The translations under genes were made by a program, and so were the position numbers. The notes below the pieces were generated by a model that searched no databases, was not told the origin of the DNA, and saw nothing but the letters and a program-made list of their open reading frames with translations. A stretch of DNA of 64,000 nt, from positions 14,019,653 to 14,083,652 of the forward strand of contig NC_134028.1 of NCBI RefSeq assembly GCF_964204645.1, in the 5' to 3' direction. Source of the stretch: Tubulanus polymorphus. Lineage: Eukaryota > Animalia > Nemertea. Shown here piece after piece: positions 13,784 to 51,368 of this stretch (the stretch's first letter is position 1; every line of letters starts with the position of its first letter).

Positions 13784-14536
13784 CTACTCTCTACATCTTA
13801 TAACTAATTCATAAATTACAGGGAAATTATTTAAATCAATTAAGTATCCATTGTGATTTCTAATTTCTAATCTAAAATTATTAAAACGAGGAATGCATGG
13901 TTTGAAATCACATTCTGTTAAATTAAATTTTATTTGCGTTCCAAATTCTTTAACATTCTTCAATGGTAAAATGTTTAGTAAACCAGAATTACAAGTTATA
14001 TCTTTAGTTGCTTCGAATGTTTTTGTAGGATCGATTAAATTGCAATAAATATAAAAGTGTGTAAAACGTATTAAGTTTAGCGTAGCATCAATATTTGTAA
14101 AAGATTTATCTGGAGGAATTCTTAACAGTTTAGCTATAGGTTTTTTTACCATAAATGCACGTTTTTCACTATCAGACAACCTTATTTTTTCAGAACTCTC
14201 ACTTTTTAAAAATCTAATATTAAACCCGGAATTATTACCTGACTTGTGCCAGGCTTTTCTATTAATTTCTTGTGCTAATGTATCTAAATTATATAACCCC
14301 GGTTTTAAATATATATAGGCCCATTCATTTTTATTTTCATTAAAAAATAAAAAAGCTCTATGTTCAATAGTTTTATCCGATATATTATAAAAAGAATTAC
14401 ATAAACTTATATTTACTAATTTTAAATCTACACAATTCTTGAATTCTCTATCTAATTGTACTAGTAAATTATGTGATTTATAATTTGTAAGTCTTCTTGA
14501 ATCAACAAATATTCTGTATTCTTTTAATTCTACCAT
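13784..14536 (-). CDS. Minor capsid protein (penton, single jelly-roll)
   Basis: Polinton penton-type motifs IFVDSR, NSFYNI, KPGLY, IYCNLI, LEIRNHNGYLIDLNNFPV. Confidence 0.8.
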   Translation of the reverse strand: MVELKEYRIFVDSRRLTNYKSHNLLVQLDREFKNCVDLKLVNISLCNSFYNISDKTIEHRAFLFFNENKNEWAYIYLKPGLYNLDTLAQEINRKAWHKSGNNSGFNIRFLKSESSEKIRLSDSEKRAFMVKKPIAKLLRIPPDKSFTNIDATLNLIRFTHFYIYCNLIDPTKTFEATKDITCNSGLLNILPLKNVKEFGTQIKFNLTECDFKPCIPRFNNFRLEIRNHNGYLIDLNNFPVIYELVIRCRE

Positions 14537-14550
14537 TTATTTTACATATT

Positions 14551-14904
14551 TTATTCGAAATCTATTTCATGGTGCCCTTTTTCATTCTTACCTTTGTATA
14601 CGAAATAGAAATCTGCAGAACATAATTCTTCTAGATCTTCACTTGATAATCTATGAAATCTATCCGGTAAATATGTTCTGAATTTATATGTATTTCTTTT
14701 TAATCCTTCATGTTCTAAGTGTATAACTAATTTATCTCCATAGTTATTAGTAACTGTATCAATATTTGTAATTAGATATTTCTTATGGATTGTTAATTCT
14801 GTTAACTTTTTGAATTTATAATCTACAGATTTTACATTTGTTATATCTTTTATTCTATCTAGAAATAATTTGTTGTTCTCACTGTGTGTTTGTTTACTCT
14901 CCAT
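14551..14904 (-). CDS. 117-aa probable OB-fold / ssDNA-binding protein
   Basis: FKKLTEL..KKYLI...TNNYG..LVI.L...FRTYLPDRF...FVYKG beta-rich pattern; always adjacent to polB or the terminus. Fold is inference. Confidence 0.55.
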   Translation of the reverse strand: MESKQTHSENNKLFLDRIKDITNVKSVDYKFKKLTELTIHKKYLITNIDTVTNNYGDKLVIHLEHEGLKRNTYKFRTYLPDRFHRLSSEDLEELCSADFYFVYKGKNEKGHHEIDFE

Positions 14905-14933
14905 TTATAATACATATTTTTATTAAAATTTGA

Positions 14934-17900: not shown

Positions 17901-18956
17901 CTCTTTCTATCTTTGGGATGTTTTTAATTCTAACAGGATACTTATCTATCTTATAATTATTTTCAAATGGTTTATAATGAGTTAATCTACAAATATTATA
18001 AGTTGCAGGATGTAAACAACTTATTATAGCCCATAGAAAACATTTATCATCTTCATTTTGTACATTTATAACAGCATTAGTTTTAAATGGTGGTTTAATA
18101 TAACTCGATGCTTCAATATCTGGTTCTTTATAATATGATTATTTTCATCTATTGGTTTTGATTTAGTTAACTTATTATATTTTGTGTTATAAACATGTAA
18201 AGTCATAAATATTATCTCATCAAATATTAAACCAGATCCTTCAAAATATTTCTCTTCTATTTTAGTTTTTACTTCATTATAACATTTGTCTAATTTATCA
18301 TCTATATGTTGTTTTGAAATAATATGTTGTGAATGAGAATTTATATTATATATTGGTTTATCTTCAGATTTTATGAATTTAACTTTAGAAGATATACTTA
18401 TTTTAGGATATTCAACATCAGTAATTATTTTTATAATATTTTTCATATTTTCTAAATGTTTTTTATTTTCTTCTAATGTTTTTCCTTTATGAAATTTAAA
18501 CTCGATAGCTGCTGGGCCAATATCACTTTTAAATACTTCGGTTATCTCTATATCTTTTTTATTATCTAATGAATTAATATAATTTCTTACATCTTCCATG
18601 TATGGTCTTTTATTGTTTAATTTATTTTTTATGTTTTTAATTGTCTTCTGTTTCTTATCATTGTCTTTATCAAAATAATCTTCACCTTAAATATCATTAT
18701 TCTTATTTCCAATATGACTTTTAGATTTTAAATGTTCATTATAATATCTTTTATCACTGAATGATTGATTACATGTATCACATTTGTATGTTTCTTTTTC
18801 ATTCTTTAATTCATCTAATTTAGTTTCTAATATATCATCTTCATATTCTAATTTCAATTTATTCTCTAAATGTGTTTTAGTTTTATTGTGTCTTGCTTTT
18901 TGGGATTTATCTATATTGATATTACATGTTGGACAGTAGTACTTATTTGCTTCCAT
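14934..18956 (-). pseudogene. Protein-primed family B DNA polymerase, fragmented
   Basis: Exo I YGDFES, EndoVII-like CYYC..RDHDH..CN, HNLSGYD, motif A YIDANNLYG, motif B KLMNNAFYGKT, motif C YFDTDS; several stops and frameshifts. Confidence 0.95.
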
Positions 18957-19546
18957 TTTAATACTAAATTTTTTATTAAAATTGATTTTAGAAGTTCAAT
19001 GATTTATATCATGTAATATTTCAATCACACTTTACTAACACTTTTAATGTTTAAAAATCTAACTCATACAAATATGAATATTGAAATAATGTTGTAAATA
19101 TATACTTTTATATTGAATAATCTGTCAATTTAAATGTTATTCATGTATATGATTATTTTAAGAGTAATAGGGGTAATGGGCTTTCAGGTTAAAGGTTGAA
19201 TGGTCGAGCTCATTAAAAAACAAAACATTAAAAGTAATTTAAAACTATAATATATTACCATAACCGTGTGTATTTCAGTTGAATAATAGAATAATTATTA
19301 TTATTAAAATATATTTGATTATATGAATTTCTGTATTGTAAATAAATCAATTGGTCGCGGAGCGGAGCGGTAGCGAAGTGGAAAAGCTTTTTAAATTATT
19401 GATATCTTAGAATAAATATTTAGTTATAATATAAAATACACACGGTTATGAAAATATATTATAGTTTTAAATTACTTTTAATGTTTTGTTTTTTAATGAG
19501 CTCGACCGTTCGACCTTTGATCTGAAAGCCCATTACCCCTTTTACT
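18607..19546 (-). repeat. Right TIR of Polinton 1
   Basis: Reverse complement of 2295-3256, with a short deletion beside the hairpin centre (~19382). Confidence 0.95.
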
Positions 19547-32878: not shown

Positions 32879-33477
32879 AGTAATAGGGGTAATGGGCTTT
32901 CAGGCCAATGGTCGAACGGTCGAGCTCATTAAAAAACAAAACATTAAAAGTAATTTAAAACTATAATATATTTTCATAACCGTGTGTATTTTATATTAAA
33001 AACTAAATATTTATTCTAAGATATCAATAATTTAAAAAGCATATTGTATTAAATCAATTGGTCGCTCCACTTCGCTACCGCTCCGCTCCGCGACCAATTG
33101 ATTTATTTACAATACACAAATTCATATAATCAAATATATTCAAATAATAATTATTATTCTATTGTTCAACTGAAATACACACGGTTATGAAAATATATTA
33201 TAGTTTTAAATTACTTTTAATATTTGTTATTAATGAACTCGACCATTCAACCTTTAACCTGAAAGCCCATTACCCCTATTACTCTTAAAATAATCATATA
33301 TATGAATAACATTTAAATCATTGAACTTCTAAAATCAATTTTAATAAAAAATTTAGTATTAAAATGGAAGCAAATAAGTACTACTGTCCAACATGTAAAA
33401 TCAATATAGATAAATCCCAAAAAGCAAGACACAATAAAACTAAAACACATTCAGAGAATAAATTGAAACTAGAATAT
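32879..33477 (+). repeat. Left TIR of Polinton 2
   Basis: Reverse complement of 50769-51368 with a few mismatches. Confidence 0.95.
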
Positions 33478-36400
33478 AAAGATGATATATTAGAAACTAA
33501 ATTAGATGAATTAAAGAATGAAAAAGAAACATACAAATGTGATACATGTAATCAATCATTCAGTGATAAAAGATATTATAAAGAACATTTAAAATCTAAA
33601 AGTCATATTAGAAATAAGAATAATGAGATTTTAGGTGAAGATTATTTTGATAAAGATAATGATAAGAAACAGAAGACTATTAAAAGCATAAAAAATAAAT
33701 TAAACAATAAAAGACCATACATGGAAGATGTAAGAAATTATATTAATTCATTAGATAATAAAAAAGATATAGAGATAACCGAAGCATTTAAAAGTGATAT
33801 TGGCCCAGCAGCTATCGAGTTTAAATTTCATAAAGGAAAAACATTAGAAGAAAATAAAAAACATTTAGAAAATATGAAAGAAATAATAAAAATAATTACT
33901 GATGTTGAATATCCTAAAATAAGTATATCTTCTAAAGTTAAATTCATAAAATCTGAAGATAAACCAATATATAATATAAATTCTCATTCACAACATATCA
34001 TATCTAAACAACATATAGATGATAAATTAGATAAATGTTATAATGAAGTAAAAACTAAAATAGAAGAGAAATATTTTGAAGGATCTGGTTTAATATTTGA
34101 TGAGATAATATTTATGACTTTACATGTTTATAACACAAAATATAATAAGTTAACTAAATCAAAACCAATTGATGAAAATAATGTATCATATTATAAAGAT
34201 GATAGTATAAATGGAACAAGTTATATTAAACTACCATTTAAAACTAATGCTGTAATAAATGTACAAAATGAAGATAATAAATGTTTTCTATGGGCTATAA
34301 TAAGTTGTTTATACCCAGTTGAAGATTATAAAAAACATACTTATAGATTAACAAATTATAAACTATTTGAAAATAATTATAAGATAGATAAGTATCCTGT
34401 TATAATTAAAGACATCCCAAAAATAGAAAGAGATAATAATCTAAAAATAAATGTATTTGATTTAATTAAATTACCAAATACAAAAGGTAACAATATAAAA
34501 CATTATACATTAGAACCTTTATACCTATCAAAAGATTATGATTCAAAGGATGTTATAGATATATTATATTATGAGAATCATTATATGTGGATTAAACAAA
34601 TCGATTTATTTTTTAAATCAGAAAATGATCACCATAAAATATATCTTTGTAGAAAATGTTTACATAGATTCAGTAATGAAAGTACATTATTAAATCATAA
34701 ACAATTATGTGAAAATCATGATTATTGTAAATTAGTTTTACCAAATGAAAAGGATAAAATATTAGAATTCAAAAAATATGATTACAAAAATAAAGTACCA
34801 TTTGTTATATATGGAGATTTTGAATCATTAAATAAAGAATTAACTGATCAAGATAGAAAAGAAATATATTATAAAAGAAAGAAATTAAATTCTAATGAAA
34901 ATGATTTTTCAGATGAACCACCAAAAACAAATACTATTAAAAAGATTCATCAATCAGCTGCAGCTTTCGGGTTATATATAAAATCTGATTATCCAGAACT
35001 AATTGAAAGTGAATATTATAATTATAGAAATGAAAATGTTATCAATCATTTTTGTGACTTATTGATTGAATGTGAAATAAGATTTAGTAAATTATTGAAT
35101 ACAAATATAGAAATTATAATGACAGAAGAAGATAAAGAAGAATTTGCGTTTGCAGGTAAATGTTATTATTGTGAAAAGATATTTAATTATAAAGATCAAA
35201 AAGTAAGAGATCATGACCATTTGAATGGTAAATTTAGAGGTTCAGCGCATGAGGCTTGCAATTTACAAGCCAAAAAAGTAAATTGTGTCCCCATTATATT
35301 TCACAATTTATCGGGGTATGACGCGCATTTATTTATCAAACAGTTATGTCATAAAATAGAAGAAATCAATAATGAAATAGAAATATTAAATTCAAATAAT
35401 CAAAAGATAAAATACCAACTTATAAATTTAGAATGTTAGCTAAAACATCTGAGAATTATATATCTTTCCAATTTGGGTGTCTAAGATTTATAGATTCATA
35501 TAGATTTTTAAATAGTTCATTAGATAACTTAGATCAAAATCATTAGTTGATGATGAATTAAAAATATTAAAGCAACACTACCCAAATAATGATGATTTTA
35601 AATTAATGAGATATAAAGGCGCAATTCCATATTCATTTTATAAATCACATAATTATTTTAAAATAACTGAATTATTGAAAGAACAATTCTATGATGAATT
35701 AAAAAATGAATATGTTAAAGATGAAGTCTATAATAGAACATTGAATATTTGGAATCATTTCAAAATAGAAAATCATGGGCAATTAATAGATTTATATTTA
35801 AAATCAGATGTATTATTATTAACCGATATATTCGAAAGGTTTAGAGATGTAAACCTAAAATATTTCAATATTGATCCATGTCATTGTTATTCAAGTCCAG
35901 GATTAACATGGGATTGTGGATTAAAATTTACAAATATAAAAATGGATTTGTTAACAAATATAGATCAATTACTATTATTTGAAAAATCTATAAGAGGAGG
36001 AGTTTCAGGTGTACTAGGTGATAGATATTTCAATGTAAATGATAACCCTGGATATAAGTTATTATATATAGATGCAAATAATTTGTATGGTTGGGCAATG
36101 ATGGAACCACAACCTTATGGAGTATTTGAAATAAGTGAAGTTTTACAGAATGAAAATAATGATAAATTTGATTTGAAGAAAAGAATTCTAGATATTGCAG
36201 ATGATTCAGATACTGGCTACTTCTTTGTTGTAGACTTAGAATATCCTGAATATATTAAATTTAAATCTAGAAATCTAGCTTACTGTCCCGAACATTTAAC
36301 TGTAGATGATAGTTATTTAAGTGAATACCAGTAGAAAATAAAACCGAAAGATCATGTTTTTACAGAAAAATTAATACTTACTCAAAATAATAAATACAAT

Positions 36401-37405
36401 TGTATTGTTCATTATAGAATGTTAAAATTTTATCTAAAACAAGGAATGAAATTAAAGAAAGTACATAGATATATTGAATTTAATCAATCGAAGTGGTTAG
36501 AAAAATATATAGATTTCAATACTCAACAGAGAACAATATCAAAAACAGATTTCGAAAAAGATTTTTTTAAACTAATGAACAATGCATTCTATGGTAAGAC
36601 TTGTGAAAATATTAGAAATAGAAATGATATTGAGTTAGTCAGTAATGGTAAAAGAATTAGACATTTACAAACATATCCTAAGTTCGTTGGTAACAGAATA
36701 TTTGATGAAAATTTAGCTGCAGTTAAGATGAGAAGAACATCAATGAAATTTAATAAACCAATCTATGTTGGCGCTTCAGTTTTAGAATTATCAAAATTAC
36801 TAATGTATGAATTCTATTATAATGTATTAGAACCACTTTTTGGAGAAAAACATATAGAAATATTATATTTTGATACCGATTCTTACATATTAAAGATAAA
36901 AACTGATAACATAACTGATGATTTAAAAACATTAAAACATCATTTTGATTTAAGTAATTATCCTAAAGATCATGAATTGTTTAGCAATGATAATAAAAAA
37001 GTTCCAGGGAAGTTTAAGGATGAATTAGGTGGTGAAGAAATGATAGAGTTCATAGGTATTAGATCTAAAATGTATTCATATAAAACTAAAGAACATGAAG
37101 CTAAAAAGTTAAAAGGAATAACCAAAAGTGTAGTAGAAAAGAATATTCATTTCAAAGATTACATCAATTGTATATTCAATGAAGAAGTTAGAAAACATTA
37201 GATGAGATGTTTAAGATCTGAAGATCATGAAATGTTTATTGAAGAAATTGAAAAGATAAGTTTAAACCCATTTGATGATAAAAGATATATTTTAGATGAT
37301 GGAATTCATACAGCTGCTTATGGTTGTAATTTAGATGAATACTTAAAATTTAAAAGAGAAGAAACAAAAGAGAACGAGATAATGAAAAGAATTCTAACGT
37401 GTTAA
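33364..37405 (+). pseudogene. Protein-primed PolB (ZnF, OTU-like region, exonuclease with EndoVII-like insert, polymerase), broken
   Basis: ORFs 33364-35439, 35606-36334, 36419-37201 and 37202-37405; NKCFLWA...ENHY, YGDFES, YIDANNLYG, KLMNNAFYGKT, YFDTDS. Confidence 0.95.
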
Positions 37406-37434
37406 TCAAATTTTAATAAAAATATGTTATTAAA

Positions 37435-37790
37435 ATGGAGAGTAAACAAGCACACAGTGAGAACAACAAATTATTTCTAGATAGAATTAGATATACTACA
37501 AATGTAAAATCTGTAGATTATAAATTCAAAAAGTTAACAGAATTAACAATCCATAAGAAATATCTAATTACAAATATTGATACAGTTACTAATAACTATG
37601 GAGATAAATTAGTTATACACTTAGAATATGAAGGATTAAAAGGAAATACATATAAATTCAGAACATTTACCTGATAGATTTCATAGATTATCAAGTGAAG
37701 ATTTAGAAGAATTATGTTCTGGAGATTTCTATTTCGTACACAAAGGTAAGAATGAAAAGGGACACCATGAAATAGATTTCGAATCAGAAA
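37435..37790 (+). pseudogene. OB-fold-like gene, frameshifted
   Basis: Matches 14551-14904. Confidence 0.75.
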
Positions 37791-37803
37791 ATATGTAAAA
37801 TAA

Positions 37804-38485
37804 ATGGTGGAATTAAAAGAATTCAAGAATTGTGTTGATTTAAAATTAGTTAATATAAGTTTATGTTATTCTTTTTACAATGTATCGGATAAAACTTTTG
37901 AACATAGAGGGTTTATGATTTATATGAGAAATAAAGAAAAATGGTTTCATATATTTTTAAAACCCGGATTATATAATTTAGAATCATTAGCGCAGGAAAT
38001 TAAAAGAAGAGCACGGTTGAAAATCGGGGGCACTTCTGTATTTGAAATTAAATTTAATAAAATTGATAGTACTAATAAAATAAGAATAAAGATATCTAAT
38101 GAACAACATAAATTTATGGTAAACAAACCACTGGCTAAAATGTTAGGAATTAAACCGCTTACAGTTACTGGAAACGCCGAAGGCAGCTCAAATATAATAC
38201 CTTTTACACACTTTTATATTTATTGCAATTTAATCGATCCTACAAAAACATTCGAAGCAACTAAAGAAACAATTTGTAGTTCTAGTATACTAAATATTTT
38301 ACCGCTAAAAAATGTTAAAACAATTTGGAACTCAAATAAATTATAATTTAACAGAATGTGATTTTAAACCTTGCATTCCTAAATTTAATAATTTTAAATT
38401 AGAAATAAGAAATCATAATGGATATTTAATTGATTTGAATAACTTTCCTGTGATATATGAATTAGTTATAAGATGTAGAGAGTAA
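37804..38485 (+). pseudogene. Penton, N-terminal in-frame deletion and C-terminal frameshift
   Basis: MVELKE joined to FKNC (lacks YRIFVDS...LDRE). Confidence 0.8.
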
Positions 38486-38502
38486 TTTTTTTCACTATAT
38501 AA

Positions 38503-38853
38503 ATGAATATAACTGTTGGACCGAGTATATGTTTTGGATTTGATTTTAAACTTGAGAAAGAAATGAAATTTAACGTTAATGATGTAATTACACATATCAA
38601 AAATATTACATTTTCTAATGAAACAACATTTGAGTATGAAACAACAATAGATAAAGAAACTTTAAATGTAGAAAAGATTACTAATTTAATTAGAGAATCT
38701 TTAAGTTTTTATGAATTAGATGAAGATTTTATCATCGATGATATTAAAAAAATAATAATTGAAATATATACAAATGAAACTAGTAATGAAATAAATGTTG
38801 AATTAATCATAAATAAGATAACTAAATATTTTGATGATAGTAATTTTTTTTGA
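38503..38853 (+). CDS. 116-aa hypothetical protein
   Basis: Orthologue of 13426-13767. Confidence 0.8.
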   Translation: MNITVGPSICFGFDFKLEKEMKFNVNDVITHIKNITFSNETTFEYETTIDKETLNVEKITNLIRESLSFYELDEDFIIDDIKKIIIEIYTNETSNEINVELIINKITKYFDDSNFF

Positions 38854-38860
38854 TAAATAA

Positions 38861-39082
38861 ATGAGTGATAATAAGTGGATAATAACTGGATTATATAATG
38901 GCGCATTACTATCAGTTGGAACTGTTGGTTATTCAATGGTATTAAAAAAATTATTTAAAATGGGAAGTGTTAATGTTGATAGATTTGATATAAATGATAT
39001 TTTAAAATTAACGTTAGCAGTTACTTTATCTAATTTAACTATTGATTATTTAGAAAAACAAAAATATATTCCTCCCATATAA
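38861..39082 (+). CDS. 73-aa hydrophobic protein
   Basis: Orthologue of 13204-13425. Confidence 0.8.
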   Translation: MSDNKWIITGLYNGALLSVGTVGYSMVLKKLFKMGSVNVDRFDINDILKLTLAVTLSNLTIDYLEKQKYIPPI

Positions 39083-39106
39083 ATACATAATTTTTTTGTT
39101 AAATAA

Positions 39107-39529
39107 ATGGCTTCTGCAATTATAACTATTATAGGATCGGCAATTGTTAACGCTTTAGCATTTACTGGAGGTGGATATTTATTTAAACATATTGATAAAA
39201 ATAGTTCATTAGGAGAACAAAGAAGACATGACTTAGCATTAGAGAAATACAATAAAGCAGCAGAAGAATATAGAGAAAAGAGGCAAAACTATATGGATTA
39301 TATTAACAAAGAATTATATGATCAGAAGATTTCACATAGAGATTTTCAATCAGTTGATGATGCAATGAGTTTATATAACGCGGTAACAAATAAAGAAAAA
39401 TTACATCTATACAAACCTAAATTATCAGATTATTATACCCCAAGTAAAGAACAACAGAAATATGAAATAATATGGATTTTAGGTGGAACTGTTATTGTTA
39501 TATTTGTAGCATATAAATTTACTAATTAG
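39107..39529 (+). CDS. 140-aa membrane protein (N- and C-terminal hydrophobic segments, central coiled coil)
   Basis: Intact ORF with TAAATG start. Confidence 0.85.
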   Translation: MASAIITIIGSAIVNALAFTGGGYLFKHIDKNSSLGEQRRHDLALEKYNKAAEEYREKRQNYMDYINKELYDQKISHRDFQSVDDAMSLYNAVTNKEKLHLYKPKLSDYYTPSKEQQKYEIIWILGGTVIVIFVAYKFTN

Positions 39530-39548
39530 TAATTTTAATTCTAAATAA

Positions 39549-39878
39549 ATGGAAGATAAAGTTGATAGTATTGATATTATTCCTCATGATATAAATAAAA
39601 CTAAATTAAAAACATATTTAGAAAAACAAATATTAGAATTTGAAAGTGACTTAAAGATAAAAAAGAAAAAATATTTAAAAAGTAAAATTATATTTTATTT
39701 GATTATTAGTGGTTCGGTTACAATTAGTTCTGTAATAACATTTCTAGCAATATTCAGTCCATTAACACCTTTAGCTATATCAATTGGTGTATTAGGATTA
39801 AGTTCAAGTGTTTTAGCTGGCATAAGTTCAAAATTAAATATAAAAAGTAATAAAGAAAAAATTAAAACTAATATTTAA
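39549..39878 (+). CDS. Two-TM small protein (premature stop; homology runs to ~39980)
   Basis: Orthologue of 12420-12737. Confidence 0.75.
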   Translation: MEDKVDSIDIIPHDINKTKLKTYLEKQILEFESDLKIKKKKYLKSKIIFYLIISGSVTISSVITFLAIFSPLTPLAISIGVLGLSSSVLAGISSKLNIKSNKEKIKTNI

Positions 39879-39999
39879 AGAAATTAATAAATTAAAGAAT
39901 ACACTAGATTATATAATAAGTTTAATGGCCATATAACAGTTGAAGAACAAGATAAATTATTAAAAGAATTAATAAATTATTAATTTTTTTATTAAATAA

Positions 40000-41388
40000 A
40001 TGGTAGATAGTTTTCCAAAAGCTTTCCAATATAATAAATCAATTAAATATAATATTCCAGCAATAGATTTTAATAAAGATATTACATATAGAAATGAAGT
40101 TTTAGATTCATTAACTAATTTAGAAATTTATGTTACTGAAACTAATAATTTTAATGCAAAGATGGAAAATATATTTCATGTATATTTAATTAATTTTAAA
40201 AAATTGAAAGATGAAAAACAATGGTTATTAAAATCTAATATGAAGTATTGGCAGAACCAATTAAATTTTGCTGTTTATTGTGCAACAACAGGATGTGGAA
40301 TTAGTTGGAATGATCATTTGAATAATTCTAAATATAAATTAATTCAAAGTTTATTTAGATTTCATACATACTTTCAAATCAGAATAATATTAAATGAATT
40401 AGAGTGCGCTTTACCAGGATCAAGATATTTTAAAGAATTAGATAATAATATTAATTTATCAAAATTTTATAAAATATGTAATGAATTTAATATAGATATA
40501 AATAATTCTGATTTTAGAACAAAAATTGGAACAATAAGATCACTTCCTTGCCCTAAAAAGATTGCAGAATATTGCGCACTTCCCATACCACCTAATAGCT
40601 TTTATAATATCTATAATAATAAATTAGGTTATGGTAAAATAGAAACAAAGGATTTAGAAACATTAAATTTAAATAAATTACCGAAATTTTATGATCATTT
40701 AAAACAAGAAAACAATAATGGTTGGGTTTATTTTATTTTAGAAAACAGTGAAGGTTTCACTAAATCAGGTATAGAAAGAATAAATCAATCTATTAGAACT
40801 TATTTGATATGTATTCTAGGATCACAGGTTGAAACAAGATCACCGATAATTGGAAATTTGAATACATCATTCGATACACAGAAACAATTTAAAGTTTTAT
40901 TTGAAGATTCAATTCATAATGATAAAAATAGATCGATTCCAGAAAACATTATAAGATATCAAAATTATTTAGATAAATCTCATGTAAGACTTAATTATTG
41001 TATAGGCCCTAATCTATTAATCATTTCTAATGATTTAGTATTAAAGATGGGACATATAATTGGTAATAATAATCTAATTAAAACTGCAACAATAAATAAT
41101 TCATTTGGATTGAATGATATGAATAAAAAGATTATTACCGCTCCAAAATTAATGGATGGGGAAAAAAATAAAAAACATATTCAATCAACAGAAACTAAAA
41201 CTAAGAATATTAAATTAAATAATGATTCTAAAATAAAAGATTATAATACATTCGAAAATATAAAAACTGATAATATTCAACATGATATAATTAAAACTAA
41301 TGATGGTAATAAATCCCATGAAAATACTAAATTAGCTATAACTTGTATAGGAATTGTAATCGGAGGAACATTATATTTTGAATTTTAA
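40000..41388 (+). CDS. 462-aa conserved protein with C-terminal TM anchor
   Basis: Orthologue of 10984-12285. Confidence 0.85.
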   Translation: MVDSFPKAFQYNKSIKYNIPAIDFNKDITYRNEVLDSLTNLEIYVTETNNFNAKMENIFHVYLINFKKLKDEKQWLLKSNMKYWQNQLNFAVYCATTGCGISWNDHLNNSKYKLIQSLFRFHTYFQIRIILNELECALPGSRYFKELDNNINLSKFYKICNEFNIDINNSDFRTKIGTIRSLPCPKKIAEYCALPIPPNSFYNIYNNKLGYGKIETKDLETLNLNKLPKFYDHLKQENNNGWVYFILENSEGFTKSGIERINQSIRTYLICILGSQVETRSPIIGNLNTSFDTQKQFKVLFEDSIHNDKNRSIPENIIRYQNYLDKSHVRLNYCIGPNLLIISNDLVLKMGHIIGNNNLIKTATINNSFGLNDMNKKIITAPKLMDGEKNKKHIQSTETKTKNIKLNNDSKIKDYNTFENIKTDNIQHDIIKTNDGNKSHENTKLAITCIGIVIGGTLYFEF

Positions 41389-41404
41389 TTTTCTTATTAT
41401 GTAA

Positions 41405-42876
41405 ATGGATGTAGAAGGTGGAGAAGATTATGAAATGGGAGAAATGGGAAATAATAATGAAGGATATATTGATGATGAACCACAACCTGATTTTAATGAA
41501 ACTAATATTGAAAATGATGATGAATCAGCATATAATTCTAATTTAGCAGATAGTGGTTCTAAAGCCCCATCAACAGATGAATTTGATAGAAGAACTAGAT
41601 CGAGAATAAATCCTGAAAATGAAAATCAAGGTTTATCAAGACAAGATTTAGAAAATTATAAATTTATATATAAATTCCAACATGTATTTGAAGAATCTGG
41701 ATATAATATAAATGACAGAGGCGCCAGACTTTTAGTAGAAAATTTAAAACTTTTTAAAGGTAAATATTATTATCATTTGGATGGTGTGGATGGTATTATA
41801 TTGATATCACTAATCAAAGGACAAGACTAACTAAAATATAAGCGGAATCAACTTTGCTTAAGTTAGAACCAGATAGAATTAAGAGAATAAGTAATAGTAA
41901 TGAAATAACTGATGTTACACAAGAAGAAAGAGATGATAATATACTAGAATTTAGTCAAAGAATTGATGACTTATTAAAAATAATCAATAATAATTTAGAA
42001 ACAGAAACAACTTCTGAACAGAATAAAACTTCCAAAACTAGTAAACTTAAATCAAATAAAGTTCCAATTGAAAAACTTTTACCGAATGGATTACTTGATG
42101 CAACAGATCAAGAATTAGAAGATTTAGATATATTTTCTGATAAAGCAATTAGAGAGATTATTAGTATAAGAAATGCATCTGATAAAATTGCGCATGATAA
42201 AAGTATAAGAGATTTTAAAATTAGAACTTTAGAAAAAGAATTAACTGATAAAAATAAAGAAATAGAACAATTAAAATTAGATAGAGATAATAAAGTTATT
42301 GAAGAAATTGAATTTAAAAAAAGAAATGCATATTTAGAAAAAGAAAAAGATGATTTAGAATATAACATAGAATTACAAAAAGAAGAAATTAAATCATTAT
42401 TAAAATCATATGATTATAATATTAATAGATTAAAGGATGTTTTTAAAAGATATCTAATAAAACCAGATTCTAGAATATCATTGAAAGATAGAATAAAATT
42501 ATTATTTAAGTTTGAAGGAATAACAATTCTTTCAATTCTAACATCTGTAACTATGGTATTTACAACAATTGGTTTAGCAATATCAAATGCTTTAAAATCT
42601 ACGCCTACACCCAATAAACCAGATAAACCCCCAGGTAATATTTCTATACAAGATAAAGTTAAAGATGGTTTAAAGAAATTAGCAAAATATTTATGGGAAC
42701 TATCTAAAAAATCTACTGCAGCTTTACCAGGAATTATTGCATCAATTGTTGGTTTTATATTGAAATCTGCAGGAAACATTATTAACTTTGCTGCTGAACA
42801 TATTATTTTATTTTTAATAACTGTTGTAAGTGCTATTATTTTTGGGTTAGTAAATATTATATCAAAAAATAAATAA
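41405..42876 (+). pseudogene. Acidic/coiled-coil protein with hydrophobic C-terminus (split near 41830)
   Basis: ORFs 41405-41830 and 41854-42876; heptad region plus GITILSILTSVTMVFTTIGLAI and IILFLITVVSAIIFGLV. Confidence 0.8.
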
Positions 42877-42896
42877 TTAATTTTTTTGTTAAATCA

Positions 42897-44144
42897 ATGA
42901 GTGGGAGTTATATCAATCCTTCTAAGAATCATAGAATATCTAATGCTATTAAAGCAGAAAGATCACATCATATAATTACTCATAACCCTTCTAATATTAA
43001 TCCCGATGAAACTTTATACGTTAGAATTCCTCGATTAACACAAAATACTTTTTATGTTCCAAATAGTATTTATTTATCGGCCGATATAAAAGTAATCGGT
43101 AATAATAATAATTATGTTGTTGATAATGTTGGAAGATATTTGATTAAAAAGTTAACAATAAAGATTGGTCCAGAAACAGTTTTCTCATTAGATGATTATA
43201 ATTTATTTATGCATTATAAAGATTTATGGTTAACTAAAGAAAATAGAAATAATATGATATTTCAAGGCATCCAATCAGAAAACCAAAATAAATTAAGATC
43301 AGAAGCTAATAGCGCAATATTAACTAATGCTGTAGATAAATTGATAAAAAGTATATATGGAAGCAAATATAAAATTCCATTAGACTTTGAATTGATAAAT
43401 AATAATGCACCTTTATATAAATACGCAATTCAAGAAGATATTATATTTGAGATAACGTTTGCTCCTGTAAATGAAATTGTATTATCTAGCGTTGTTAAAG
43501 ATATGAGTTATAAATTATCGAATATATGTTTAGAATATGACACAGTAACTGATGAAAATATTTCAAGTATAATTCAAACTAAATACAATCAAGGATTTTC
43601 ATTATTATATGATTATATTGATAAATTTAAAACCGTAACTATTAATGCAAATGATGAAATAATTAATGAGAATATTAACTTCCCAAGAAGATCTATTAAA
43701 GGCATATTAATATTTTTTACCATTGCAACATATACTAATGGCGCAATAAATGTTGATAATTATTATAATCCTGAAATAACAAAAGTAGAAATAACTATCG
43801 AAGGAATAGCAAATAAAATATTTTGTCAAGGAATGAGAATGATTGATCAATGGCCAGAAATTAGAAAACATTTTATGAATGAAAAAGTAAAATCATTTGA
43901 AAATTGTAACATTAATCAAATTGATTATTATACCGGTAATAAATATGCATTATGGTTAGATTTTAGAACAACAGAGGATAATTCATCACATGGTTCTGGA
44001 AAAAAACTGCAAAACACTAAAGATGGAATACAATTATTCATGACAAAGAATAAAGGAATCAAAAATTTTAAAATGCATATTTATATTATATCTGACGCGC
44101 AATTAAATATTATAAATTCACAATTAGATAGTGTTATGTATTAA
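42897..44144 (+). CDS. Major capsid protein (double jelly-roll), intact 415 aa
   Basis: Size, beta-rich pattern (THNPS.I.P...LYVRIP.L, NVGR.LIKKL.I, LEYDTV, YALWLDFR) and very high conservation between copies. Fold is inferred. Confidence 0.8.
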   Translation: MSGSYINPSKNHRISNAIKAERSHHIITHNPSNINPDETLYVRIPRLTQNTFYVPNSIYLSADIKVIGNNNNYVVDNVGRYLIKKLTIKIGPETVFSLDDYNLFMHYKDLWLTKENRNNMIFQGIQSENQNKLRSEANSAILTNAVDKLIKSIYGSKYKIPLDFELINNNAPLYKYAIQEDIIFEITFAPVNEIVLSSVVKDMSYKLSNICLEYDTVTDENISSIIQTKYNQGFSLLYDYIDKFKTVTINANDEIINENINFPRRSIKGILIFFTIATYTNGAINVDNYYNPEITKVEITIEGIANKIFCQGMRMIDQWPEIRKHFMNEKVKSFENCNINQIDYYTGNKYALWLDFRTTEDNSSHGSGKKLQNTKDGIQLFMTKNKGIKNFKMHIYIISDAQLNIINSQLDSVMY

Positions 44145-44176
44145 AATTTTAACTTTAATAAAAAATCTTATATTAA

Positions 44177-45003
44177 ATGGAAGGAGGTAAAGTATATAAA
44201 CATATTCCATACATCGATACACATGAAAATAATGATGGTTTATATTATGTAATACCTTGTAATATAGCTTTGATATTTGATCCTATTTTCAAAATTTATA
44301 AAACTAAACTAATAGAAATCGATAATAATAAAGGTGGTGTTGTTGATAATTTAAGTAATGTAATTGATAATAATGTAATACCTACTACAGTAATACCTAC
44401 TACAGTAATACCTACTACTTCTGATAATATAATACCTACTACATCTAATAATAAAATGATATTAGATGTTAGTGAAAATAGAAATTATTGTGGTTATTGT
44501 AATGGTGAATTTTCAAACGCTCCATCAAATTGGAATAAACATATGAATACAAATTCACATAATACTAATGTTATAGAACGTGTTGGTTTAAAAGAATTTA
44601 TAGAACACCCATTTAGATATGTTACAAAATTTGTTTCAAATAAAAAAGTAAATGGTAAAGAATTATATGAAGATTTTTTATTAGCAACACCTAATAAAGA
44701 TGAATTAGATTTAAGCGATGCTAATGAAATATTAGGATCAAACACTGTAAATGAAATATTAGGAGCAAACACTAATAAAGATTCTATGAAACATAAAGTA
44801 GAAAATAATAATAATTTGATTGGATGAATAAGTATAAAAATGAAACAAATATTGATGATTCGGTAAAAAAGGTGAAAAATAAGTATAAAAATAATAAACC
44901 AATTATTTATGAAGATACGGTAGAGCATTTGAATAAATTGTTAGGGTCTGAAAGTGATTATAGTGAAAGTGATTCAGAAATTAATTATCTAACACTCAAA
45001 TAA
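44177..45003 (+). CDS. Zinc-finger / PTS-repeat protein (ORF to 44827; C-terminus frameshifted)
   Basis: Orthologue of 7356-8201. Confidence 0.75.
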
Positions 45004-45061
45004 TAAAGGTTGAAAATTGTATAAAATAATAGTAAATAAAAAAGGGGGTTTTAAGTATTTA

Positions 45062-45162
45062 AGGTATCTAATAGGGTATCAGGTATTAGGGTATCTAATA
45101 GGGTATCAGGTATTAGGGTATCTAATGGGGTATCAGGTATTAGGGTATCTAATAGGGTATCT
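45062..45162. repeat. 31-bp minisatellite (ggtatctaatagggtatcaggtattag-type) between convergent gene blocks
   Basis: About three tandem units. Confidence 0.8.
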
Positions 45163-45172
45163 ACACAAATAG

Positions 45173-45784
45173 TTATTTTATAAATTTATATTCATATGGA
45201 AATTGTAGTCTTAGTAATAATTTTGAACCTTTATTATTCTTTAATTTATTCATATATTCATCATGTAATTCAGTAGGTATAATTAGATTTTCTTCCAATG
45301 ATTGTTGCATAGATTTTTTATCTTTGTTATAAAATAAAACTAGAAATCTAATGTTTTCTCTAAAGTCTTTAACAATTGAATTATATTTTTGATTTAAAAC
45401 CCATGTTGTTATCCCGAAATGTCTTCCAGAGAACGCTAGATAACATAACTCACTTTCTCTAACTTTTGAATCATGTAAATTTGCGCAATCATCTACAATG
45501 AATAATGTATTTGATCCTTTATAAGTATCAATTGCTATTTTAATACAATTATCTAAATTTTCTTTTACTGTTTTAGGGTCTAATATAATAAACTTTTTCA
45601 TCTTAACTATATCTCTATTGTATGTTTTATTCATTTCATAAGTAGGACAGAATAATATTATATTATCAAAATGATTCTTATAAATAGTTTCTAACAAATC
45701 TAATATGAAATGTGTTTTACCACAGTTTGTTACTCCAGTAACTAACATATTATGCGGTTCAAATATAAATAAATCTTTATTCAT
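45173..45784 (-). CDS. A32/FtsK-like packaging ATPase, intact
   Basis: GVTNCGKT, LFIVDD, SGRHFG, NQKY...FREN. Confidence 0.95.
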   Translation of the reverse strand: MNKDLFIFEPHNMLVTGVTNCGKTHFILDLLETIYKNHFDNIILFCPTYEMNKTYNRDIVKMKKFIILDPKTVKENLDNCIKIAIDTYKGSNTLFIVDDCANLHDSKVRESELCYLAFSGRHFGITTWVLNQKYNSIVKDFRENIRFLVLFYNKDKKSMQQSLEENLIIPTELHDEYMNKLKNNKGSKLLLRLQFPYEYKFIK

Positions 45785-46874
45785 TTATTCTTTTAATTTT
45801 ACTAGATAAAATCCATTCATTAAATTTATCATCGTATCCTTTATATTTCACCAAAGAATACTTTTTTCCTTTAAGAGATTTTGTTTTCAATACTTTTTCT
45901 ATTTTGTATTCTATTTCATCTGGATTTGGTACAAGTGATAATTCTTGTTCATAGAAATAACCTAATATTTCTTCATCTTTCAGATCTTCTAATTTATAAA
46001 CAAAAGGTTTAGTTAATATTATCTTTTTAATTTTAAATATTTCTTCAGTAAAATTTGGGGTATAACCTTTATAAAAGGTTTTTCTATATTTAGATATTCT
46101 TACGTGTTGTCCAATTTTAAATTTAGGTTCTCCAAAATCATGTGTAACAAACGCACCATATAAATTATTCCAAACTATTTCCGAATTATCTTCTTTTCTA
46201 GCTTGTATAGGTTTCATATTTATAGAACTATGTTTAGAATTATTATAACCTTTCACTAAATCATCTAATATATTTATAGACTCATCGATATATTCATATG
46301 TTTCATTAGCAGTAAAATATTTCCACATTCTAGTTTTCAATGTTTTATTAAATCTTTCTATAATAGATGCTTTTTTGTCTGAGTGTGTTGAAAAATATTC
46401 TACATCGTTATCAGATAATAGTTTTTTAAAATGTTTGTTATAGAATTCCTTACCTTCATCAAATTGTATCTTATCTGGAATAGCTTCTTTAAATATAGAT
46501 TTAAAAGCATTTGTTACTTCTATTCCAGTTTTATTTTTGATTGGAACTGACCATGCGTATCTACTGAATATGTCTATAACATTCAGTATCCAGAAATATC
46601 CTTTGTTGTATTCCTCTAAGTTCTTCATGTCAATTAAATCTGCTTGCCATTGTTGATCGATATATGAAACCATAACTTTTCTTGTTAAATAAGTTTTATC
46701 CATTTTCTTGTGGATTTGGTATGTTGGTTGATTTTGTAACCATGATTTCAATTCACTATATTTTATATCACCATTATCAGATTTAATTTTACCCCATAAT
46801 TCTGAAACGTTAGAATATGACACTTCACTTTCTGGGTTATAATATAAATCTCTTAAATATTGTTCTTTTTTCAT
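45777..46874 (-). CDS. rve integrase with chromodomain, intact
   Basis: As 5315-6406. Confidence 0.96.
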   Translation of the reverse strand: MKKEQYLRDLYYNPESEVSYSNVSELWGKIKSDNGDIKYSELKSWLQNQPTYQIHKKMDKTYLTRKVMVSYIDQQWQADLIDMKNLEEYNKGYFWILNVIDIFSRYAWSVPIKNKTGIEVTNAFKSIFKEAIPDKIQFDEGKEFYNKHFKKLLSDNDVEYFSTHSDKKASIIERFNKTLKTRMWKYFTANETYEYIDESINILDDLVKGYNNSKHSSINMKPIQARKEDNSEIVWNNLYGAFVTHDFGEPKFKIGQHVRISKYRKTFYKGYTPNFTEEIFKIKKIILTKPFVYKLEDLKDEEILGYFYEQELSLVPNPDEIEYKIEKVLKTKSLKGKKYSLVKYKGYDDKFNEWILSSKIKRINE

Positions 46875-46880
46875 TCTATT

Positions 46881-47243
46881 TTAATCCATTAATAATAATT
46901 TAGATTTAGTTTCAATGGCTTTATGATTTGACTTATTTTCTGGTATAATATGTTTCCGATTGTCATTGGAATCATATTTATCATCAGATTTGAATTTTGA
47001 TTTATATATTACACCGGATAATATAATAACTGTTACTAATCCAATTGTAATATATAATTTATAATTACTTCCAGCATTAAAAGAATCAGATGGATTATCA
47101 TTTGAATCAATATCAGGTGATTCATTTATATCAGTTAATTTCTTTTTCTTAGCTTTTTTTAATTCTGAAGATCTTTTACCTAATTCTCTTGCCCATTTAA
47201 TTTGTTTCTCGGATCTAGCCTTTTTCTTAACTCCATCACTAAT
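46881..47243 (-). pseudogene. Single-TM small protein; open frame but ATG mutated to ATT
   Basis: 121 codons in frame; orthologue 4940-5308. Confidence 0.7.
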
Positions 47244-47838
47244 TTATTTTAGTTGATTTTTGTTCTGATTCATTTTCTCTTTCGCCGTTTGGTTGTAGTA
47301 CATCTGTTTCGTTCTTACCTGATTTATATTCCATAGGCTTGATGTTCGAAAATGTTATGACGCCAGTAGAAATTAATGTCATAACCGATCCTAATTGGAA
47401 TGAAGCATAACCAACCCATTTTTGTAATTCAGTCATAACTAAATAGTCATTTTTCAAATCACTATATAATTTATTTTCATCATCAATTGGTATTAACTGG
47501 TTACATAACTTAGAATAACATTTGACAATACCATTCGAAATAGAATCATTTATTTTAGCTAATCTTGCTTCTTCATAAATCTTAAAATATTTTATTACTT
47601 TATCTGGTTTCATAGAGTCTAGTTCGTGAAAAGTAATGATTCTATTTAAAAACTCCTTAGATTTCCCGCCAGCAATTAATAATTCAAGATGATGCTTACA
47701 ATATAAATAGTATTCATAATCTATATTGTTATTAACTTGAATAGAATTAGTTACAACTGTATCTTTATTATCACTTATACCCAAATCATCTAATGTCTTT
47801 TCAATATCAATACTATTCTTATTAGATTTCTTTGACAT
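47239..47838 (-). CDS. 199-aa hypothetical protein
   Basis: Orthologue of 4345-4947. Confidence 0.85.
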   Translation of the reverse strand: MSKKSNKNSIDIEKTLDDLGISDNKDTVVTNSIQVNNNIDYEYYLYCKHHLELLIAGGKSKEFLNRIITFHELDSMKPDKVIKYFKIYEEARLAKINDSISNGIVKCYSKLCNQLIPIDDENKLYSDLKNDYLVMTELQKWVGYASFQLGSVMTLISTGVITFSNIKPMEYKSGKNETDVLQPNGERENESEQKSTKIN

Positions 47839-48140
47839 TTATATTAGAGGAAAAAAGCCCAAAAAAATATTATAAGTATTCTTCAAATGATACCAGTATC
47901 TCTTTAGATTAATACTAGCTTAGTTAAAGGTAAAGAATTTTAGTATTAGTTATTGTTTTTTAGTATTTTTTATTTGTGATATAAAGTATTCTTTTTTGAA
48001 AAGAATATATTAAAAATATAATAGAATTCACTAGCTAGTTGAAGTTATTGTTTTTTTAATATTTTTTATTTAAAATCTATTTGATATCTCACTACTTTTG
48101 TTTATCTATTAGGAGCAGTAGTTATAACTGTCCAGATAAG

Positions 48141-48815
48141 TCATTTCGGATCCTTGATATCAAATTCCTCAACGTATTGTTCATTATTTGGATCATTGTT
48201 CCATAATTCAACAAATGTCTTTGCTTTATCCAGTTGATCTAAATATAATTTCATATCTAGTTTATTAGATTTAATTATGTTTTCCTTCTTTTCTAAAGGC
48301 CTTAAATTTTTCCAACTCCAAATAAGTTTTTTATTGTATTCATCATTCATGTTAAATTTAGATATTGGTAACACGTGATCAATATGGTAATAATCCCCAT
48401 AATTATCTATATTCATTTTATCATCGAATTGAAATAAAATCCATGATTTGAGAAATTCATCTGAACAACCCAACAAATTAGATAATGTTTCTGAATGTGT
48501 TTCTTTGTTGAATAATTGTGTTAATCTAGACCTTAAGCATTGTTTCAATCTAAAATTAAGATCTGTTTGATATCTTCCTCTCATATATTCTGTCATATAA
48601 TCATTGTAAGCTTCTCTATTATCTTCTCGATATTGTTTGGTATATAGTTTAGTACAAGTTTTACAGCAATATTGAAAACCATATTTGCTAATCTTACGCT
48701 TACTAAATTCTCTTAATGATTTATCTAATTCATATTTAGAACACTTCTTGTAGTATATGTTTATAACGCCAGTGTTATTTGTAATATTGATAGTTTGTGG
48801 TTGTTCTGATTCCAT
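48141..48815 (-). CDS. HNH/EndoVII-like endonuclease of the type seen in large DNA viruses
   Basis: CCKTC, LGCS..FL, HIDHVLP..F, W.NLRPL...EN..KSNK. Confidence 0.8.
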   Translation of the reverse strand: MESEQPQTINITNNTGVINIYYKKCSKYELDKSLREFSKRKISKYGFQYCCKTCTKLYTKQYREDNREAYNDYMTEYMRGRYQTDLNFRLKQCLRSRLTQLFNKETHSETLSNLLGCSDEFLKSWILFQFDDKMNIDNYGDYYHIDHVLPISKFNMNDEYNKKLIWSWKNLRPLEKKENIIKSNKLDMKLYLDQLDKAKTFVELWNNDPNNEQYVEEFDIKDPK

Positions 48816-48982
48816 TTATTATACATATTTTTTTACTAAATTGGTTAATAATTTTAGAATCCTCTTCCATTTCTTCGACCAACGTCATCCTTTTTCATTC
48901 TTCGTTGCTTTTGATAAGTCGTTTCGATTCCTTGATATCTAAATCATTCCAGTTACAATAACCGCGTCACATGCGGACATAC

Positions 48983-49305
48983 AGGAGCGTTTTTGCCTAA
49001 TGCGCATGCGTTAATCATAATTATATATTCATTCTGTAAATTCTGTAAAATAGAAACGACCGACATAAAATATCAAAACGTGTTCGCACTAGGCAAAACC
49101 GCTCCTATAGGAGCGTTTTTGATCAATGCGCATGCGCTAATCATAATTATATATTCATTCTATAAAATAGAAACGACCGACATAAAATATCAAAACGCAT
49201 GTGCACTAGGCAAAACCGCTCTTATAGGAGCGTTTTTTATCAATGCGCATGCGCTAATCATAATTATATATTCATTCTATAAAATAGAAACGACCGACAT
49301 AAAAA
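48983..49305. repeat. ~117-bp tandem repeat x~3 with TGCGCATGCG and GCTCCTATAGGAGC palindromes
   Basis: Palindromes at 49101-49114 and 49218-49231. Confidence 0.9.
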
Positions 49306-49368
49306 TTCACCAATCAGATTTACACAATACATTATACAAGTATGTTCGATCGTTGTACATAATTTGAT

Positions 49369-50079
49369 TTATAATTCCAACCAGAACTTTTCAATTTCTG
49401 GATCATTGTCAAACATTTTTTCAATATCGTTTAAATATTTTACTATATCAGAAAATGACAAACTTAAAAATTGGAATCTTTTATATGTAATTAATCTCCC
49501 TACACTTCTTAATTTTCTTTCATACCCAGCACTAATACCTATATATTTTTTAACCCAAGAAGTCCAAGAAATCCCCGCAGTTTGTTTATTAAACATTAAT
49601 AATCCCCTATTTAAACAATCCCCGAAAATGATATAATCCCATAAATGCTTTGCTTTTTTAAATAACAAGGTTCTATAATTTTTTTCGATAAAGCAGTTAT
49701 TTCATTAAATGATGTTATACCTTCTATTTCTTTAAAACTTGCATCTTTTTCAATTGATAATTTTGATTAAAAAAAACTCAGTTAACTCATTTCCGCTCAT
49801 TTTCTTTTTAGTTTTTGTTCCTTTTAGTCTTAACAATATTTCTACATTGGTTGTTGGTCTTTTCGGTAATGATGTTACGCTTGATTGCTGGTTTTCTATT
49901 ATTTTTTCTAAAATTAATGTCATTTCTTGATGGTAATATAAATGTTTTTTAACTTCTTCTAACGTTTCATCTTCTATATCGAAAGATTCTTTTACTTCAG
50001 TACCCATTTCCATTGGTTCGTCTTCCTCCATTTCGGTTGCCCTCTGAGAATTAAGAGTACTTCTTGATACACACGACAT
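49369..50079 (-). pseudogene. ~230-aa putative HTH DNA-binding protein, frameshifted
   Basis: ORF pieces 49750-50088 and 49369-49668; Y..FG..L...W.SWV....IS..YERK pattern resembles DUF3102-type HTH (inference). Confidence 0.55.
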
Positions 50080-50088
50080 TTTATTCAA

Positions 50089-50545
50089 CTAAAAGATATC
50101 AGCGGTAGAACAGGAACCGCGATATTAAATGATATAAATATTTTCAAGTCTATCGTTTCTAATTATTATATTTCAAGTTATTATCTATCTAACGTAAAAT
50201 AGAATTAACTGTATGAAGTTGTAGTTGTCAAAAGCACTTAAAGGTTTCATATTTAATGGCCTTAATAACTACAAAAACAGTACTTACATTTAGATTTATA
50301 ATTGTAAACTATAAACTCCTAATTTCGTTTCGATATATAGAATATCCTGAGCACAATATTACAGCGTCTGTTCATTTCCGGGGCGATTTCTAGAATGGCA
50401 CGTCGTTGATCATGCCACGTCATCTGGTTCCAGCGCGCCTTTCTAGAATATTCTACACGTTTCTGATTATGATGTGTCATCTCTATTCAGAGTTCCAGCA
50501 CACCTTTCTAGAATTTTCTCTGCACGTTTGTAATAATGAGTCATA
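50089..50545 (-). promoter_or_regulatory. Pol II-type stress-responsive promoter with probable 5' UTR intron
   Basis: TTCnnGAAnnTTC at 50441-50453 and 50506-50518; CCACGTCA 50415-50422; TGAGTCA 50537-50543; CTATATAT (minus) 50333-50340; GTAAGT donor at 50287, TTTTAG acceptor at 50089. Confidence 0.6.
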
Positions 50546-50630
50546 AGTCTCGGCGTCATAGTAACAACTGTAACAGCTGTGAATTTATAGATTTATTCCA
50601 TAGCTTTGTACATTGAATGTATATAGGCGC

Positions 50631-50882
50631 TCAAATAGAATCATTTTCTAGTATAAACATCAGATCCTTGATATCAAATTCCTCAACGTATTGTTCATTA
50701 TTTGGATTATTGTTCCATTGATCAATAAATTTCTTTCCCTTTGTTAACTGTTCTGAATATAACTGTAAATATTCTAGTTTCAATTTATTCTCTGAATGTG
50801 TTTTAGTTTTATTGTGTCTTGCTTTTTGGGATTTATCTATATTGATTTTACATGTTGGACAGTAGTACTTATTTGCTTCCAT
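50631..50882 (-). pseudogene. Chimeric ORF: polB zinc finger (TIR) fused to HNH C-terminal paralogue
   Basis: MEANKYYC...KLEY followed by LYSEQL...NNEQYVEEFDIKD. Confidence 0.8.
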
Positions 50883-51368
50883 TTTAATACTAAATTTTTT
50901 ATTAAAATTGATTTTAGAAGTTCAATGATTTAAATGTTATTCATATATATGATTATTTTAAGAGTAATAGGGGTAATGGGCTTTCAGGTTAAAGGTTGAA
51001 TGGTCGAGTTCATTAATAACAAATATTAAAAGTAATTTAAAACTATAATATATTTTCATAACCGTGTGTATTTCAGTTGAACAATAGAATAATTATTATT
51101 ATTTGAATATATTTGATTATATGAATTTGTGTATTGTAAATAAATCAATTGGTCGCGGAGCGGAGCGGTAGCAAGGTGGAGCGACCAATGTGATTTAATA
51201 CAATATGCTTTTTAAATTATTGATATCTTAGAATAAATATTCAGTTTTTAATATAAAATACACACGGTTATGAAAATATATTATAGTTTTAAATTACTTT
51301 TAATGTTTTGTTTTTTAATGAGCTCGACCGTTCGACCTTTGGCCTGAAAGTCCATTACCCCTATTACT
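50769..51368 (-). repeat. Right TIR of Polinton 2
   Basis: Reverse complement of 32879-33477. Confidence 0.95.

Follow-up and report, generated by a model that had tools for sequence, protein, structure and literature searches.

Gene starts resembling poxvirus post-replicative promoters in one capsid clade of Polintons point to a possible satellite lifestyle

A 64,000-nucleotide stretch of the genome of the nemertean Tubulanus polymorphus (contig NC_134028.1, positions 14,019,653 to 14,083,652; hereafter the window) carries two integrated Polintons, copy 1 and copy 2, that belong to a single clade by their major capsid protein (MCP) and whose gene starts bear a conserved, clade-specific signal, TAAATG. 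As judged from sequence comparison, these starts closely match the post-replicative promoters of poxviruses, and we consider it probable, at about 0.65, that the element is a satellite whose genes are transcribed by RNA polymerase supplied by a poxvirus-type virus infecting the same cell. Parasitism of poxviruses by Polinton-like viruses (PLVs) has already been proposed, as described by Barth 2024 (PMC11296320); the promoter system specific to this clade is real, and it bears on the nature of animal Polintons, which may be either virophages or viruses that live autonomously in the nucleus.

TAAATG at the gene starts of both window copies

A preliminary description of the window, made from the letters alone, had placed TAAATG at the copy 2 starts at 37804, 38503, 38861, 39107, 39549, 40000, 41405, 44177, 45784, 47838 and 48815 and at the copy 1 starts at 9483, 14904 and 4940. 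All of these are present, and the five strings of T-run and spacer quoted for 39107, 38861, 40000, 12737 and 10968 are exact. With gene starts taken as the first ATG of each open reading frame (ORF), TAA precedes the ATG at 11 of 15 gene starts in copy 2 as against 31 of 613 other ATGs (Fisher p 4e-11), and at 12 of 14 in copy 1 as against 35 of 595 (Fisher p 9e-13), a background of 5-6% within the same elements. The two copies are 86-97% identical and are therefore not independent evidence. Variants of the motif are seen as well: polB and the copy 2 gene labelled 'OB' start in TAAAATG, and the copy 2 MCP gene has a T-run upstream and has lost the TAAATG that is present in copy 1 (9483) and at 13 of the 14 clade MCP starts seen.

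Across the clade, a run of at least four T ends 5-8 nt before TAAAT at 34 of 67 starts, compared with a mean of 5.7 and a maximum of 14 in 2000 shuffles and with 4 of 75 TAAATG sites that are not gene starts. The proposal of late promoters at almost every gene is thus borne out for the virion block and is too broad for the element as a whole, as only about half of the starts are of the T-run type and the rest have an A-rich core. The spacers of about 10-35 bp reported between genes are indeed short at intact junctions (0-32 nt), with longer gaps following premature stops; they do not discriminate, because relatives that lack the motif are equally compact. The reported T at -3, contrary to the Kozak preference, is found at 34 of 37 clade starts, with G at +4 in 24 of 37, and in AT-rich relatives 25 of 26 starts have a purine there.

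Confinement to one capsid clade

An MCP alignment search gave 160 related metagenome stretches, of which the best 80 were analysed; 79 of these and the window entered the tree, L073 being too short. The motif-bearing loci form one clade of 16 rows with a Shimodaira-Hasegawa-like approximate likelihood ratio (SH-aLRT) of 97, and a tree of 34 rows recovers the same split (98.1, ultrafast bootstrap 100). At homology-anchored starts TAA-ATG occurs in 37 of 43 clade cases, as against 1 of 27 among sister loci and 1 of 104 among distant ones, and after removal of 11 near-duplicate loci the counts are 33/37 for the clade, 0/26 for other loci below 40% GC and 2/80 for GC-rich loci. Relatives outside the clade share the MCP, the ATPase, the integrase and five unnamed genes, yet only 2 of their 131 starts are TAA-ATG.

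The window elements are about 76% AT, a composition in which TAAATG could arise by chance. However, only 5-6% of other ATGs carry it, the AT-rich relatives lack it (0/26, the comparison with an AT-matched background that the preliminary description had called for), and it persists throughout a clade whose GC ranges from 0.20 to 0.44, at 28/31 starts in the subgroup of GC 0.21, 2/4 at 0.29, 13/15 at 0.32 and 9/11 at 0.41. Near-absence from AT-rich relatives together with retention at GC 0.41 means that the motif is not an AT effect, and these controls refute chance, to which we assign next to no weight.

The motif might instead act in translation or RNA processing, as a stop-start coupling site, a poly(A) signal or a trans-splice acceptor in compact genes arranged like operons, a role suited to their tight packing and to the AATAAA that lies within AATAAATG at 22 of 53 starts. 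The other 31 starts, though, are not AATAAA, the TAA closes an in-frame upstream ORF in one of 53, only 7 of 53 have an AG in the 12 nt upstream, and the motif also stands at head-to-head starts that have no upstream gene, with both partners carrying it in six of seven such pairs. AATAAA is equally frequent inside the coding strands of all groups (observed over expected 0.91-0.94), and with AATAAATG discounted it shows no enrichment after stops. We regard a processing signal as very improbable.

Compactness of head-to-head pairs was rejected as evidence, the gaps being 19-72 nt in the clade and often 3-49 nt in motif-less relatives (L016, L018, L034, L048 and others), which likewise show no poly(A)-signal enrichment. 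TATA, TCAKT, TCTA, ATAAAC and TAAGA were sought in these relatives, and none is clearly prominent as a shared motif. Queries with MCP or ATPase found no relatives in the viral-contig or genome-contig sets searched. Several Bartonella sp. records list an MCP homologue with 54% identity (cluster P0046); it is probably DNA of a host animal that entered the bacterial assemblies.

Comparison with poxvirus promoters

Poxvirus loci for a positive control were fetched with a helicase motif (26 loci, confirmed as poxviral by Pfam on genes of three) and with a neighbouring-gene search (36 more), and 48 loci with promoters and a GC of at most 0.45 were used. The genes of these loci were named by their order and size, and six were confirmed by Pfam. 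They were classed as late or intermediate from the table given in PMC11980589, and the late and intermediate matrices built from them exclude TAAA itself.

In 69 unique poxvirus late promoters T peaks 10 nt before the initiator (85%), and in 68 unique clade promoters it peaks at 9 nt (88%); the clade also has an A peak at 13-15 nt, a region that is A-rich in 96 unique poxvirus intermediate promoters. The median best matrix score is 2.6 for the clade as against -0.13 for shuffled clade sequences, -1.2 for 115 TAAATG sites that are not starts and -0.44 for 39 TAAATG starts of other viruses (p at most 3e-9). The poxvirus-type reading has held in AT-matched, phylogenetic and positive-control tests.

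These other viruses bear on the possibility that the element is a satellite whose helper is a different cytoplasmic large DNA virus with TAAA initiators. Three mutually near-identical giant-virus contigs (L113, L118, L126) carry TAAATG at 5 of 12-15 starts, the T peak of the clade is offset by 1 nt from that of chordopoxviruses, and yeast virus-like elements are described as using a TAAAAT initiator too (PMC12722222). The 39 TAAATG starts from such viruses nevertheless score like controls on the poxvirus matrices, and the clade differs from them (p 3e-9), so that we think a non-poxvirus helper improbable. The giant-virus contigs and L081 encode PCNA, VLTF3 and minor capsid P2/P9, and TAAATG marks 3-5 of their 10-15 ORF starts.

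Within the clade, the virion block has a T-rich core ending 6-8 nt upstream, and polB and several other genes an A-rich core further upstream, suggesting late-like and intermediate-like classes. This split is tentative, because the classifier assigned 121 of 165 held-out poxvirus promoters correctly, and three genes ('OB', HNH and 38503) switch class between orthologues. With scores given as late minus intermediate, and on the plus strand unless stated, promoters classed as late-like lie at 38478..38505 (gene 38503, +4.1), 38836..38863 (gene 38861, +4.2; also late-like in the clade loci L003, L006 and L007), 39082..39109 (gene 39107, +2.8), 39524..39551 (gene 39549; copy 1 equivalent at 12737, +4.7), 39975..40002 (gene 40000, +2.0), 41380..41407 (gene 41405, +2.0) and, on the minus strand, 47836..47863 (gene 47838, +5.8; late-like in L001, L003 and L004). 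The MCP promoter appears weakly late-like in copy 1 and clearly so in L001 and L003.

Intermediate-like promoters, subject to the same classifier, would be those of polB (33339..33366, A-rich core, TAAAATG, -10.2), the 117-aa 'OB' gene (37410..37437; copy 1 equivalent at 14904, -6.7), gene 44177 (44152..44179, -10.7; same class in L001 and L004), the HNH gene (-5.3) and copy 1 gene 4940 (4915..4942, -8.9), a real gene with orthologues in L001, L003 and L004. Scores are weak or mixed for the putative penton (37779..37806, weakly intermediate-like; copy 1 -1.5, L003 -5.6), the ATPase and the integrase. At 10340-10981 clade member L003 has a deoxynucleoside kinase gene (PF01712, E 2e-31) whose TAAATG promoter is late-like; the kinase has three close homologues at 60-67%, and no named poxvirus homologue is present among its 38 matches.

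Anatomy of the window Polintons

The window holds two complete yet decayed Polintons in opposite orientation, each with terminal inverted repeats (TIRs), AGT ends and its own 6-bp target-site duplication (TSD). Copy 2 (32879..51368, plus strand; TSD 32873-32878 and 51369-51374) and copy 1 (2295..19546, minus strand; TSD 2289-2294 and 19547-19552) keep both ends and have several genes broken by frameshifts and premature stops. The TIRs of copy 2, on the left at 32879..33477 (plus strand, containing the polB promoter and start) and on the right at 50769..51368 (minus strand), are 98.8% identical over 601 nt, and the arms of copy 1 are 99% identical. A total of 20,844 contigs from one DNA sequencing run match copy 2, indicating many variants of the family in that organism.

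On the plus strand copy 2 encodes a protein-primed DNA polymerase B (pPolB), in pieces, at 33364..37405 (PF03175, E 4e-8 on the piece at 35606-36334) and a double-jelly-roll MCP of 415 aa at 42897..44144, for which AlphaFold2 (AF2) gives a mean predicted local distance difference test (pLDDT) of 87.5 and Foldseek a match to the PBCV-1 capsid (E 1.7e-17). On the minus strand lie an A32-like packaging ATPase at 45173..45809 (PF04665, E 6e-12), with a TAAATG start and a promoter of unclear class in copy 2, an RVE integrase with chromodomain at 45777..46874 (PF00665, E 2e-9), whose start lacks TAAATG, and an HNH/endonuclease VII-like gene at 48141..48840 (PHROG 1035, E 6e-16) with an intermediate-like TAAATG promoter. 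The pPolB, RVE integrase, TIRs with 6-bp TSD, double-jelly-roll MCP and packaging ATPase identify the element as a Polinton/Maverick.

The labels 'penton' and 'OB-fold' of the preliminary description were not confirmed; the putative penton has a weak DUF5901 match (E 0.025), and the L003 orthologue gives a single-sequence AF2 pLDDT of 39 and no match in the PDB. Pfam scans covered one set of 28 window ORFs and one of 35 clade and window ORFs. Among the scanned copy 2 and clade ORFs no protease family was recognized, although a very diverged adenain protease could escape such a scan; RNA polymerase, TBP and TFIIB families have no match among either set, in agreement with the earlier statement that the element has no RNA polymerase.

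The outer 410 nt of each of the four TIRs (for example 32876-33286) is an imperfect palindrome with arms of 60 and 77 nt at 86-87% and an inner perfect 16-nt arm, and each end could therefore form a long hairpin. At 50631-50935 the right TIR repeats the polB promoter and first codons, driving a chimeric 83-aa ORF whose tail resembles that of the HNH gene. Three repeats of 117-126 bp at 48980-49309, not found in copy 1, each contain TGCGCATGCG, which we take to be NRF1-like; this 10-mer also occurs four times in flanking DNA (54794-55468), so the repeats are probably a host-type insertion. A 27-bp tandem repeat (45032-45161) lies between gene 44177 and the ATPase gene, whose ends converge there.

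Elsewhere in the window are a third, more diverged Polinton fragment (60100-62235, 69% to the copy 2 polB), whose apparent 5' end at 60100 is also in a T-run/TAAATG context, and partial element copies at 1-220, 26776-28112 and 52470-53665, with TAAATG starts kept at 90 and 27982. The flanks include a reverse-transcriptase piece, a Myb/SANT gene and a piece of DUF5641, a domain that accompanies Bel/Pao elements; together they make an animal host likely.

Discussion

In a cell infected by a poxvirus-type helper, the naked DNA of the element would be read first by intermediate factors, at polB and other genes, and then by late factors, at MCP and the virion block. With initiation inside the AAA, each transcript would acquire a poly(A) leader that the template does not encode, and the T at -3 would therefore never be part of the mRNA; T at -3 and G at +4 would both fit transcripts that begin in this way. 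The element would replicate with the pPolB it encodes, be packaged by its own ATPase into its own capsid and reach germline DNA through its integrase. Poxvirus early promoters are known to work only inside the core of the helper, so a free parasite genome would be limited to intermediate and late promoters, and an intermediate-like polB with a late-like virion block would then be the expected order. Vaccinia post-replicative mRNAs are described as beginning inside AAA and gaining an A-leader (PMC12722222), and, in the account of PMC12917281, TAAA is read directly by the poxvirus core polymerase, with intermediate transcription in vitro needing only polymerase, capping enzyme and VITF-3. Mavirus sets a precedent: its integrated copy, otherwise silent, is reported to be activated by a helper in the cytoplasm with which it shares a late motif (PMC6428243).

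Alternatively, the motif could be a private nuclear promoter at which an element-encoded or host factor recruits RNA polymerase II, its poxvirus likeness being convergent. Chromosomal integration, the lack of family matches for several clade genes and the reported expression of coral polintovirus genes (PMC11131425) speak for this. The scanned ORFs, however, include no TBP, TFIIB or polymerase family, and the upstream profile fits the poxvirus matrices beyond the TAA itself. Furthermore, by the Kozak rule, a motif overlapping the ATG with T at -3 would be a poor translation context for a transcript begun upstream. We consider a private nuclear promoter unlikely.

Several observations weigh against transcription by a poxvirus-type helper. 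No helper was found: the only poxvirus-family match in the scanned window and clade ORFs is the A32-like ATPase common to Polintons, and among 58 viral-contig loci picked out by a promoter-pattern scan there is neither a Polinton nor a helper. In both window copies, and in 2 of 4 relatives, the integrase start is without the motif, and an integration that leaves a 6-bp duplication requires a step in the nucleus. Motif-less relatives that are as compact and as free of poly(A)-signal enrichment provide no proven nuclear contrast. The control contained chordopoxviruses only, the T peak of the clade lies 1 nt nearer the initiator than theirs, and some non-pox giant-virus contigs also have TAAATG at 5 of 13 ORF starts. 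To these we add the limited accuracy of the classifier and the class switching of three genes. TTTTTNT is depleted in clade coding strands (15 against 40.8 expected; 27 against 29.9 in AT-rich relatives), a result that is ambiguous, as long A-runs are depleted also, the order-specific test gives p 0.053, and TTTTTNT is not enriched at convergent ends (1/8 sense, 1/8 antisense).

Among known systems, the Maverick/Polinton group in Polintoviricetes, including adintoviruses (Starrett 2021, PMC8502044), is described as having the same pPolB, RVE integrase, A32-like ATPase, double-jelly-roll MCP, TIRs, 6-bp TSD and length of about 18 kb. The element differs from these in that no adenain protease or PLA2 was found and in its clade-specific poxvirus-type promoters; the word 'promoter' is absent from the main text of that paper. 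The mavirus provirophage of Cafeteria, with its helper CroV, is described as sharing pPolB, RVE integrase and chromosomal integration (PMC6428243), and as having a promoter motif in common with a cytoplasmic large virus; here the motif is of the pox type and no helper is known. For mavirus, dependence and reactivation are reported as experimentally shown (PMC6428243), the host being a protist and the helper of the mimivirus type, with a late motif; the present element has two motif classes and a host that is likely an animal. It also departs from virophages (Lavidaviridae) in that no protease was found, and the MCPs of mavirus and Sputnik rank 48-50 by Foldseek, below the PBCV-1 and iridovirus capsids.

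Related proposals are the entomopoxvirus-associated PLVs AHEV_PLV1/2, CBEV_PLV1 and Ca_PLV1, put forward as Polinton-like hyperparasites of poxviruses in animals on the evidence, as described, of co-sequencing with occlusion bodies (Barth 2024, PMC11296320). Each of the four is described there with a cysteine protease and none with an RVE integrase, whereas here the integrase is present and a protease was not found. The main text of that paper has none of the terms 'promoter', 'TAAATG', 'transcription' and 'RNA polymerase'. Vaccinia late promoters, as summarized in PMC11980589, PMC12917281 and PMC12722222, share with the clade TAAAT(G) at the start codon and a T-rich core about 6 nt upstream, and intermediate promoters, in the same sources, have a TAAA initiator and an A/T-rich core about 11-12 nt upstream with no T core, features that the intermediate-like starts may share. 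The clade differs from them in a T peak at 9 rather than 10 nt, in being more uniform, and in being carried by an element whose scanned ORFs include no RNA polymerase. Among the open-access papers covered by full-text search, no earlier account of poxvirus-type promoters in Polintons was recognized.

A whole clade of animal Polintons may have switched from host to poxvirus-type transcription, becoming germline-inherited virophages of undiscovered poxvirus-like viruses with an intermediate-then-late programme of their own, and may blunt helper infection as mavirus does; we offer this wider view tentatively and with some doubt. A promoter signature restricted to a single clade, for which motif-less relatives of equal gene content serve as natural controls, makes the choice between autonomous nuclear viruses and virophages directly testable. 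The signature also offers a route to predicting poxvirus-type viruses in animals that have no recorded ones, and if these Polintons are indeed a clade of virophages, their host range would map unseen poxvirus-type viruses in those animals.

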